A stretch of DNA of 64,000 nt from Eledone cirrhosa (GCA_964016885.1 OZ024742.1:294624001-294688000); one strand, 5' to 3'; shown: positions 828 to 53,964, counted from the first letter of the stretch. Numbers and translations are program-made. Notes: generated by a model from the sequence alone, not told the origin.

Positions 828-933
828 AACGAAGGAGATGTGGTAAGGAACCAGATGGACCATAACGCACCAGAGTCCAGTAATAGCCGTCGAAACGACT
901 TGAGCTCTGCCGTCGGGGTCATACTTTTTCCTA
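828..933. mobile_element. Fold-back mini-element family A, internally deleted copy, in (TA)n
   Basis: Matches the tail (AAGGA..GTGGTAAGGAACCAGATGGACCATAACGCACCAGAGT) and one palindrome arm of the copies at 25658 and 44391; flanked by (TA)n on both sides. Confidence 0.85.
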
Positions 934-1309
934 TATATATATATATATTTAGATTCTTACAATATGGCCATAAGTTTGTGGAAAAATGGATATTCACTAA
1001 GCATTATTATTAAAATGATATTTCGAAATGATGTTGAGTTTAGACATATTGGTTTATATATACTCCACTCACTGTTCGGAAATATGTCTTCTTTGATGGT
1101 GCTTAGCTAATATTTACTTTGTAGAAACAGTATAGCTATATCATAAGAATTGTGTAAATCTATTCTTATAATACTTTGTTTTCAATTTGTTCCTATGTAT
1201 GGATTTTTATGATTAACAGAGCAAAATTGTCCACTCACACACACACACAGACACATACACTCACACACACACACACACATATATATAGGTATATATATAT
1301 ATATATACT

Positions 1310-1585
1310 TTCTAGGTACAAATTTACGCTCAGAGTTGCTGAAGCATGGAACAAACTACCTGCATCGGTTGTTAGCTGTCGAGACACTGTATCCTTTAAG
1401 GCCTCCATGCTTCCGGAAATTCGCCAACAGTACGCCTAATGTTTCCCCTCCATACACATACACACATGTATATCATGACTCATACACTATTCACTTCCCT
1501 GACATTTGTGTATTATTCTATGTACTATACATGCACCTTTGATGAGTTGTAGTGCACCTGAGCACTTTACACAATAATTTCATTA
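1310..1585 (+). mobile_element. CR1/L2-type LINE 3' fragment
   Basis: Encodes FTLRVAEAWNKLPASVVSCRDTVSFKASM, the typical ORF2 C-terminus of CR1/L2 LINEs. The same 3' UTR recurs at about 47615-47800. Confidence 0.75.
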
Positions 1586-2004
1586 TATATATAAAACCTA
1601 TATATATATATATATATATATATATATATATATGATCTTTATACAGTACCTTAGCCATTTTTTGCTACGTGAGTTTCCCCCCCCCCCCCCCTCCCAGTTA
1701 AACAATACTTTTCTGAGCTGCAATCATTTAGGTAAACCCCCCCCCCCCCTCCAAATGGTACTGAATAAAGGTTTGACAAGAAACGTAAGTAGGACAATCA
1801 CTTAGGTCCTGTATGGAGATTACCTCAAACTTTTCAATTGTTAGTGAATTCTCTCTATCTTTTTGGATATTTACTCATCTACACACAGACACACTCACAT
1901 ACTTTCATACATATACACATACATATTTTTGTATGTATAGTTTGAAAAATTATAACCCTACAATTATGTGCACATTCACACAAACATTATCAAACATTAT
2001 CTAT

Positions 2005-2172
2005 AAACTAAATCTATAAACTAAAACTCAGCTAAACTAAGATCCATCTATACACTAAGACTCAGTTAATCTAAGACCCATCTATACACTAAGACCCAGC
2101 TAAACTAAGATCCATCTATACACTAAGACTCAGCTAAACTAAGACCCATCTATACACTAAGACCCAGCTATG
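2005..2172. repeat. Minisatellite, about 34-bp unit built of 17-bp subunits
   Basis: Repeats of TAAACTAAGATCCATCTATACACTAAGACTCAGC. Confidence 0.85.
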
Positions 2173-2787
2173 ACTAATCACTTTTCTAAAAACTTAACCC
2201 GACACAAATACTGAATGAGATAACTAACCAAATCTATCTTAATAAATGACTGGTGTGGCAGTAGCTAATCATACACCCTCAATTGAGCAACTAAACTCAT
2301 ATATTTAACCAAAGTATGTTTGGCTTCTTGTATATATATATATATATATATGTATATATATATATATATATATATATATATATATATATATATATATATA
2401 TATATATATATATATATATATATATATATATACATATATATATATACAAAGTAATTCAGTTACAGGAATTCTATCACACAAACACATACACACACATGCA
2501 TATGTATATATATATATATATATATATATATATATGTGTGTGTGTGTGTTATAAATATATGTGTATATATATACTTATATCTATATATGTATATATATTT
2601 ATATATCTATATACCTATCTATATATATATACACATGTATGTACGTATGTGTGTATATATATATATACACATGTATGTATATATATATATATATATATAT
2701 ATACACATGTATGTGTATATGTAGGATCTGGAAAGGGAGTCACTAACTACCTCATAGATAATCCATTCTAAATTACTATAATATGAT

Positions 2788-52158: not shown

Positions 52159-52433
52159 AAGGCACATGGCCTAGTGGTAAGGGTGTTGGACTTATGATCA
52201 TAATGTCGTGGGCTCGATTCCTGGGTTGCGTGCTGTGTTCTTGAGCAAAACACTTCATTTCATGTTGCTCCAGTATACACAGCTGAAAAGGAGTACCAGC
52301 AATAGCTGGGGGTTTAACCCTGCGATGGACTGGTGTCCTGTCCAGGGGGGAGTCTTGTACTCTCAGTCGCTTCACGCCATGAAACCGGGATAATCACCGG
52401 ACAAATGAGCCTTCTGGCTTAAGACAGACTTTA
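52159..52433 (+). mobile_element. tRNA-derived SINE, family S2 (3' part also at 36120-36216)
   Basis: A-box TGGCCTAGTGG, B-box GGCTCGATTCC, CORE-like TGTGTTCTTGAGCAAAACACTT, V-domain-like GATGGACTGGTGTCCTGTCCAGGG. Confidence 0.85.
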
Positions 52434-52679
52434 GATATATATATATATATATATACATACATACATATATATATATATACATACAAACATATATGCATAC
52501 ATACATATATATATACATACATACATACATATATACATACATACATATATACATACATATATATATATATATATATATATATATATATATATATACGTTA
52601 TTCCGGGTTGAATCGGAGGTAACCACAGTAAGTAAGGTACTCAATACATTGCAGAGTATAAAAGTTTTAATATAGATGA

Positions 52680-52728
52680 GATTCTACAGGACTAGAACTG
52701 TTTCATTCTTTAGAAATCCTCAGGAATC
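52680..52728 (-). ncRNA. Complete type I hammerhead motif
   Basis: GATTC-CTGAGGA-T TTC TAAA GAA T-GAAA-CAG TTCTAGTC CTG-TA-GAATC. Confidence 0.85.
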
Positions 52729-52732
52729 TCAT

Positions 52733-52781
52733 GATTCCTGATGATTTCTAAAGAATGAAACAGTTCTAGTCCTGTAGAATC
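52733..52781 (+). ncRNA. Complete type I hammerhead motif
   Basis: GATTC-CTGATGA-T TTC TAAA GAA T-GAAA-CAG TTCTAGTC CTG-TA-GAATC; predicted cleavage after GUA at 52776. Confidence 0.85.
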
Positions 52782-53964
52782 TCATCTATATATATATATA
52801 TATATATATATATATATATATATATACACATACACATATATACATACATACATATATACACACATACACACACATGTATATATATATAGTATATATCTTG
52901 CTGTGTTCTTTCAGTTTCTTCTGTAACTTTATCCTCTCTCCATTTTACCTTGTCTTGCCTTCTCACCCATATCATACTCACTTTCCATCCCAATTCATCT
53001 CATCCTCTCACTCTGCCATATCCTTCTTTTTCCCCTCTCTCATCTATCTTCATATCTCCCCTCTTTCCCTCTCTCTTCTCTATCCTCCTCCCCATCACCC
53101 CTTTCTCCCGCATTCTATCTACCCCCTCCCTCTCTTTCTAGTCTATCTTCACATCTCCCCTCACCCTTCCTCCACTCCAGTTTATCTATTCACTTCTCTC
53201 TCCTCCTCCTCTCATGCCTGATTTTATATCTCTCCCATTTTTCTCCCCCCCCCCTCTCTTTCTCTTCTTTCTCGACCTCTTTCTCATCTATGTTAATATT
53301 CTCTTCCCCTTCTGCTCTTTCTTAACTCTCATCATTCCATATAAAATATTTATAAATCTAAGTTTTTTTCCCATCTTATGAAAAACTTTCCATGAAGTAT
53401 AAATTCTGTAGTTGTATATTCCCAGACTGGAAATCTCCAACATTGTTGATAATTAATGACGGGTGAGAGTAAAATGTCTGCTGATAATTGGTACCAGGTG
53501 AGACTTATTAGTGTCAGGTAAAAATATGAAAGGAACCAATTGTCGAATGAGACCAAAGAAACAATGTTTCCTTTGGGCCTTCCATTGTTGATACTAACTG
53601 CTGGTTGTAAAATTCTGGTAGAAAGGGGTGATACATGAATTAAGAATGCACAAAGCCAGATTAGATACTGCCAAGCATCTTGTCTGACTTTTTAACAATT
53701 CCACCAATCCACCACCTCCAAATACTTACTTTATTGACCCCCAAAAGAATAAAAGGTAAAGTTAGCCTCAGTGGAATTTGAACTGTGAGTACAGGAACCG
53801 CCTTCAAGGAATTTAGTTGATCGAGTACTTATTTTTTAAAGTCTGGAACTTAGTTTATCAAGCTCTTTTGTTGAACTGTTAGGTTATGGGACACAAACAA
53901 ATAGTAAATGTAAACTTAGACCTGATCACACCGATATACATACATACATATATATATATATATA

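Follow-up and report, generated by a model that had tools for sequence, protein, structure and literature searches.

We analyzed a window of 64,000 nucleotides from Eledone cirrhosa (GCA_964016885.1 OZ024742.1:294624001-294688000; positions below count from its first letter), a stretch of AT-rich animal DNA that is dense throughout in (TA)n tracts and RTE-like repeats. A Penelope-like element (PLE), designated PLE1, lies in one of these tracts, and a series of short inserts in the window share parts of its architecture (Table 1). The initial annotation had assigned nine inserts (PLE1, four copies of family A, family B, and the inserts at 43102, 43730, and 47177) to a single plan in which a TA tract is followed by an inverted arm, a centre, the arm, a one-sided tail, and a second TA tract. 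All nine exist at approximately the positions assigned to them, but the plan is clean in only four (PLE1, copies 25658 and 44391, and B). TA tracts of at least 8 nt flank six of the nine on both sides (PLE1, all four family A copies, and B); 43102 and 43730 have such a tract on the right side only and 47177 on neither side, which agrees with the weaker flanks already noted for 43730 and 47177, where the plan otherwise fits. Copies 18960 and 828 depart from it through a very short inverted piece and the lack of a palindrome, respectively, and 43102 through the lack of a tail that could be linked to another element.

Table 1 Positions of the Penelope-like elements, short inserts, and hammerhead motifs in the window.
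Feature	Position	Strand	Description
PLE1	25900..28652	-	5'-truncated Penelope-like element in (TA)n; C-terminal GIY-YIG, inverted 5' arm, one-sided tail
PLE1 coding region	26454..28329	-	stop-free; start falls inside the first reverse transcriptase motifs
PLE1 inverted arm	28330..28652	+	complement of 25944-26266 at 323/323 nt; outer end runs into TA tract
PLE1 tail	25900..25943	-	44 nt, at one end only (beyond left arm); resembles 3' ends of PLE2 and 43730
PLE1 hammerhead	26162..26199	-	predicted minimal type I, in 3' repeat; stems I/II/III of 2/6/3 bp; mirror copy 28397-28434 (+)
PLE2	28927..29839	-	second 5'-truncated PLE; GIY-YIG peptide; hammerhead core at 29179
Family A copy 25658	25658..25852	+	inverted arm 25658-25712; direct piece from 25713; 79-nt tail 25774-25852
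Family A copy 44391	44389..44589	-	tailed, near-perfect palindrome; apex exceeds that of 25658 by 3 nt
Family A copy 18960	18960..19087	+	9-nt inverted piece joined via A run to direct piece including tail
Family A copy 828	827..934	.	two non-overlapping pieces; not a palindrome
Family B	52595..52791	-	arms of 58/59 nt alike, 4-nt centre, 75-nt tail 52595-52669
B hammerheads	cores 52723, 52738	-, +	whole type I, one per arm
43730	43725..44167	-	old palindrome, arms 70% alike, ~70-nt tail; homologous to PLE1/PLE2 3' repeat
47177	47129..47612	-	arms ~87% alike, 27-nt centre; putative 48-nt left tail; weak TA flanks
47177 hammerheads	47329, 47457	-, +	minimal, U3-A8 core variant, one per arm
43102	43096..43342	.	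symmetric; arms 93% alike around a 3-nt centre; TA tract to the right only
28762 insert	28762..28908	-	TA-flanked, non-palindromic, 147 nt; type I hammerhead core at 28853; absent from the initial annotation

PLE1 contains a single stop-free frame with reverse transcriptase (RT) and C-terminal GIY-YIG domains. The RT match to RVT_1 (E value of 1e-4) falls below Pfam's cut-off, and GIY-YIG passes its profile cut-off on the peptide of PLE2, which is 59% identical to the C-terminal part of PLE1. The PLE1 alignment shows a CX4CxxC linker and a CCHH endonuclease, in keeping with the CX2-5CxxC linker and CCHH motif that mark endonuclease-containing (EN+) PLEs, and its termini carry the corresponding features: a hammerhead in the terminal repeat, an inverted pseudo-long terminal repeat (pLTR), and a one-sided tail. 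Both ends meet TA tracts. A search of 4779 candidate proteins recovered 207 relatives, the best being an Octopus vulgaris protein with 67% identity, which, from this one mobile gene, would make the host an octopus or a near relative. These relatives are ~790-910 amino acids in length and contain RKDHK before GPPxRPVC; the six that were aligned extend several hundred residues further toward the N-terminus, whereas PLE1 breaks off just past the position of the RKDHK motif, where the inverted arm is attached. The stop-to-stop frame of PLE1 reaches 28496 only by reading through this arm. The longer relatives therefore indicate that PLE1 is truncated, and we regard it as a young, 5'-truncated RT plus GIY-YIG element. 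Judged by eye, the short spacer of its linker (CX4CxxC, 7 residues, C) looks like that of the Nematis rows in figure S2 of Craig et al. 2021 (PMC8557442), not like that of the long-spacer Neptune rows. Assignment to the Hydra clade, which lacks CCHH and has a DKT motif, was rejected because CCHH is present and the relatives of PLE1 have DKS; the Naiad clade, with an N-terminal endonuclease and no canonical hammerhead, was rejected because the endonuclease of PLE1 is C-terminal and a hammerhead is present. Among metagenome contigs, 92 stretches matched the pattern for relatives of PLE1, none of which was confirmed.

The truncated 5' end of PLE2 (29785-29839) consists in part of a 21-nt inverted copy of its own adjacent coding sequence; this end borders directly on an RTE-like repeat, at the (ATG)n tail of the latter. 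Between 25637 and 29839, a family A copy, PLE1, a 51-nt island, the 28762 insert, and PLE2 adjoin one another with TA tracts between them, an arrangement that reflects repeated insertion into one TA-rich patch.

Family A displays the architecture in four versions. The inner junctions differ in all four copies, and the same two outer ends are reused: site 1, the first outer end (25773 in the coordinates of copy 25658), and site 2, the end of the tail (25852). Variable 5' junctions combined with fixed 3' ends are the mark of truncated PLEs. The inverted arms of 25658 and 44391 have no derived change in common, and the direct piece starts at the position equivalent to 25713 in three of the four window copies. 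Copy 828 differs in kind. Nucleotides 827-876 correspond, in reverse complement, to the final 50 nt of the tail, nucleotides 874-934 form a direct piece ending at site 1, and the 29 nt of family sequence between the two (25774-25802) are missing; the junction exhibits 3-nt microhomology. A PLE origin of family A is probable. Its pattern had no exact match in metagenome and viral contigs. In the parts of the supplement of Craig et al. 2021 that were searched, two family A motifs were unmatched and the tail motifs gave only unrelated short matches (wrapped lines may hide some), and family A was accordingly not assigned to the 3' end of a Naiad or of Hydra-1_Obim, the octopus families in the tables of that paper.

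The 3' ends of 43730, PLE1, and PLE2 align with scores that none of 300 shuffles reached in any comparison, and 43730 is the only short insert for which the window contains a PLE that bears an open reading frame (ORF) and has a homologous 3' end. The tails of A and B show a weak similarity (reached by 4 of 300 shuffles, for one pair among the 55 tested), and 43102 has no tail that could be linked to any other element. A PLE origin is supported for PLE1, 43730, B, and 47177 and unsupported for 43102. A census of the window yielded 13 local palindromes, six of which are the named short ones; five of these six end within 12 nt of a TA tract, compared with 2.9% of unmasked positions. The arms of the short palindromes differ by 2-30%. 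Palindromes at 16004, 19815, and 22123 were dropped from the set as inverted pairs of other repeats, and that at 43479 as weak. Further short palindromes lie at 62044-62124, beside a TA tract, and at 62366-62520; a hammerhead scan of both found none.

Most of the inserts had been said to carry whole or partial hammerhead cores. We scanned them with a strict type I descriptor that was fixed after the sequences had been seen; of two earlier versions, both of which missed B, one found a single motif and the other failed through its stem II cut-off. The strict descriptor revealed a whole motif in both arms of PLE1, B, and 47177 (three of the nine inserts) as well as in PLE2 and in the 28762 insert, which has the strongest hammerhead in the window (stems of 10, 9, and 3 bp). 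Shuffled palindromes gave 0-5 matches in 500 per element (14 elements tested). The two nulls for the PLE1 motif, whose predicted stem I is just 2 bp, gave 0 and 2 of 500. Across the window there are 10 cores, versus 0-3 in 20 block shuffles; two of the 10 (15580 and 54999) lie outside every studied element and are possibly due to chance. No hammerhead was recognized by the strict descriptor in the four family A copies, 43102, or 43730. The last contains a decayed homologue, and a hammerhead in 43102 was rejected because 23 of 100 nulls score as well. Family A retains the 3' half only (GAAA, a 5-bp stem III, and GUC), which 5 of 2000 shuffles reach for a motif picked after looking; the CUGANGA or U3-A8 box of a type I hammerhead is absent from all four copies. 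We read this remnant tentatively as half a hammerhead, as the same letters can form a plain 5-bp hairpin. Rfam returned 103 matches up to E = 1, none of which was a hammerhead; the models matched were those of microRNAs, at hairpins and microsatellites.

Each of 25658, 44391, and B is predicted to fold into a single hairpin (-106 to -119 kcal/mol) in which the ribozyme sequence pairs with its mirror copy. Because long hairpins of this type would sequester the ribozyme, activity of the palindromic RNA appears unlikely. The proposed class of ribozyme hairpins is not supported: the most frequent family lacks half of the catalytic core, and these three inserts fold as long hairpins. Two further islands contain fragments of the motif. 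Next to copy 828, a TA-flanked island (640-792, + strand) has a CUGAAGA box and a short stem and lacks the GAAA box; it is probably a 3' remnant, now decayed, of a different PLE family. At 61836-61852 (- strand), inside a TA-flanked island, a CUGACGA box runs straight into GAAAC with no stem II and may be a chance occurrence or a very small hammerhead variant.

All contigs of four public sequencing runs from three studies were aligned to 25470-28329. In run X1, which may be the source sample and whose listing covers 15 joints out of 170 and 24 loose ends out of 1459, summed depth (which is not equivalent to copy number) is 1.8-3.7 million on family A versus 1.3 million near the 3' end of PLE1. 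Along the PLE1 ORF it falls from 0.58 million at the 3' end to 0.07 million at the 5' end, which matches 5' truncation. In this run, 309 contigs stop at 25773 and continue as TA, and 153 contigs have loose letters before 25713 that agree at just 0.48. Among the joints listed, TA-like sequence is attached at 25944, 25950, 25952, 25957, 26132, and other inner sites; in three joints the direct piece starts at 25714-25716; and opposite-strand joints connect 25712 with 25749 (2 contigs) and 25716 with 25810 (3 contigs), the latter resembling the form of copy 828. Contigs of X4, X5, and X7, from three other organisms, are near-identical to PLE1 (26462-28298) at low depth, with 1 difference in 821 nt, 0 in 457, and 0 in 373, respectively. 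Horizontal spread in recent times, close relatedness of the organisms, or DNA carry-over may account for this near-identity.

We are confident that the inserts other than 43102 are truncated PLE insertions. Taken as a whole, the likely explanation is that eight of the nine are 5'-truncated insertions of several PLE families into (TA)n, with the known shape of an inverted copy and a one-sided tail. The short palindromes would lie at the lower extreme of the truncation range and do not form a new class. For the route by which the inverted copies are built, we lean slightly toward two-strand priming as the principal one, and both it and fold-back may operate. The GIY-YIG domain would cut both strands of a TA tract, as it does in vitro on AT-rich DNA for a lizard PLE, and each 3' end would prime reverse transcription from either of two start sites close to the RNA's 3' end. 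A start at site 2 takes in the tail and a start at site 1 does not; this is seen in vitro for the lizard PLE, and both ends are observed here. The two cDNAs would stop early, and pairing of a few bases, in many cases at a small hairpin, would join them head to head. Depending on their lengths, a long and a short cDNA would produce PLE1, two short ones a palindrome, and two that do not overlap copy 828. Hammerheads would be passengers from the 3' repeat that probably do not cleave inside the palindrome. Two cDNAs, one per start site, joined in this manner could account for all four family A forms and PLE1. The proposed route recalls twin priming of LINE-1 (L1), in which two target ends prime two cDNAs that join through microhomology and leave the 5' part inverted. 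Copy 828 resembles its products; the inverted part of L1 omits the 3' end, whereas the inverted copies described here usually repeat it.

Fold-back had been proposed as the general mechanism. In this scheme, a cDNA that folds back on a hairpin serves as its own primer and is extended as far as an internal TA, after which the second end of the target captures it. A single cDNA that folds back repeats only what it holds, so copy 828, in which neither piece contains the other, could not arise from one self-primed cDNA. As the general mechanism, fold-back is not supported; it is a live rival for the perfect palindromes, and overall we consider it possible but the less probable route. The centres in 44391, 25658, B, and 43102, which measure 1-6 nt, point to it, as do the snap-back at the 5' end of PLE2 and outer arm ends that fall on TA or TAT. 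The full identity of the PLE1 arms does so as well, yet is uninformative if both cDNAs share one source locus, and fold-back requires an extra rule to stop at site 1, a natural start site according to the available text of PMC11167929.

Several observations weigh against two-strand priming or against the PLE assignment of particular families. Centres are about 10 nt or less in five of the seven short true palindromes; tiny centres are a direct prediction of fold-back, whereas two-strand priming needs joins that favor hairpins. PLE2, moreover, ends in a snap-back of coding sequence. Copy 828 and the X1 joint 25716/25810 could be later deletions of a full palindrome, and the joint lies on a 5-nt repeat that fits deletion equally well. 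Start sites in vitro have no homology to the target, whereas the ends described here merge with TA, and the tails of A and B, at 79 and 75 nt, have roughly double the published length of 30-40 nt. The expected link between tails and PLE ORFs is seen for 43730, through the 3' ends of PLE1 and PLE2, but within the window A, B, 47177, and 43102 have no ORF-bearing partner, which for the first three counts against their assignment. The inversion joint of PLE1 is not among the 15 of 170 X1 joints listed, which neither confirm nor refute it, and the X1 depths measure contigs and not copies.

It is tempting to speculate that family A, perhaps along with B, represents an independent non-autonomous element with a ~140-nt RNA and a fixed 5' end that is moved in trans by a PLE protein, although we hold this to be unlikely. 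The recurrent start of the direct piece at 25713 in the window and at 25714-25716 in X1 argues for such an element, together with the low agreement of the loose letters before 25713, the X1 depth above that of the PLE1 3' end, the absent CUGANGA box, and the lack of motif matches in the searchable supplement of Craig et al. 2021. However, the same start would result if RT stopped strongly at a hairpin within a longer autonomous RNA, a parent sequence in blurred form could underlie the loose-end consensus, and the window contains just four copies. In its fullest form, an equally doubtful proposal, family A would be a very abundant non-autonomous PLE parasite whose ~140-nt RNA carries half a hammerhead and a tail of double length and uses two-strand priming on (TA)n, with the result that many of its copies end up as DNA palindromes.

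An origin of the short palindromes as miniature inverted-repeat transposable elements (MITEs) or as TA-inserting fold-back DNA transposons, unrelated to PLEs, is improbable. MITEs are symmetric and uniform; A, B, 43730, and 47177 have one-sided tails and varied junctions, with hammerhead parts or PLE-homologous tails, and the family A copies differ in structure. Symmetric in form, the insert at 43102 carries TA at the ends of its two arms and contains neither a hammerhead nor a linked tail; for this insert, which occurs once here, the chances of a MITE are about even. The palindromes at 62044 and 62366 similarly have no hammerhead. Amplification or assembly chimeras are very improbable, for although the PLE1 arms are 100% identical and their joint is missing from the X1 joints listed, the arms of the short inserts differ, their ends recur at fixed sites, and X1 contains opposite-strand joints at the family A apex.

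The remainder of the window contains a TRIM-type RING/B-box gene with a long exon (2788-4473, - strand) and broken LINE (long interspersed nuclear element) reading frames at 9648-10214, 20231-21845, and 40857-41642, which we presume from their motifs to be RTE-like; many related short 3' fragments occur window-wide. Palindromes of RTE-like 3' ends that meet at (ATG)n/(CAT)n are found at 19815-19992 and 57305-57395, and their origin differs from that of the PLE set.

Short PLE palindromes could be misfiled as MITEs or unknown repeats, and eight or nine inserts per 64 kb suggests that they make up a sizeable share of the repeats in this genome. A short, abundant family renders inverted-repeat formation countable, and arm overlap, junction microhomology, and start-site use distinguish fold-back from two-strand priming without bench work. 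If the reading of family A as a PLE parasite inserted by two-strand priming is correct, its junctions, including those of the 828 type, would constitute a genome-scale in vivo record of how PLE inverted repeats are built.

The literature search turned up no paper dedicated to short palindromes of PLE origin or to hammerheads in octopus, subjects that older work, Repbase, or Dfam might cover. The initial annotation had allowed that the class might be undescribed; in the portions of the literature available, however, its anatomy appears in PMC8557442 and PMC3846280 and short opposite-strand hammerhead pairs appear in PMC4209133. This is not a new class, but probably one whose families are uncurated. 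Cervera and de la Pena 2014 (PMC4209133) describe dual minimal hammerheads of Schistosoma mansoni, on opposite strands and 100-700 bp apart, as probably stemming from truncated PLEs; the shared features are the U3-A8 core variant, as in 47177, and an extra base before stem II. In the available text these pairs occupy one sentence, which says nothing of arms, tail, TA targets, or mechanism. Non-LTR retrozymes (bioRxiv 10.64898/2026.07.22.740005) are, in the sections available, short non-coding hammerhead elements derived from PLE pLTRs that form head-to-tail tandem arrays. We rejected this identity, as the inserts here are head-to-head or single, not tandem with whole ribozymes, and family A lacks half of the core. 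According to the available text of Arkhipova et al. 2013 (PMC3846280), Penelope elements of Adineta vaga have an inverted pLTR shorter than the direct one, an optional tail, microhomology at the 5' junction, and solo pLTRs, and pLTR-bounded sequence was moved in trans; they differ from the elements described here in their low copy number, visible target duplications, and membership of the Penelope/Poseidon clade. Frangieh et al. 2024 (PMC11167929) reported that purified Poseidon PAc from Anolis cuts and extends both strands of AT-rich DNA from two inner start sites, that the interval between these is the tail, and that the hammerhead is dispensable for insertion. Poseidon PAc belongs to another clade, its start sites are not homologous to the target, and inverted products are not shown in the main text. 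A further close match is provided by the PLEs of PMC8557442, whose formation of inverted repeats was called unresolved in 2021. In the available parts of that paper, insertions are heavily 5'-truncated, often with an inverted truncated 5' copy and a 30-40-bp tail at one end, and several clades favor (TA)n. The 'HHR_half_core' of that work is the first half of the core, whereas family A keeps the opposite half, and the tails here measure 44 nt in PLE1 and ~70-79 nt in 43730, B, and A. The inserts share with these canonical EN+ PLEs of the Nematis/Neptune type the 5' truncation, inverted truncated 5' copy, one-ended tail, and (TA)n targets, as well as a hammerhead in the 3' repeat and a CxxC linker before the C-terminal GIY-YIG domain.

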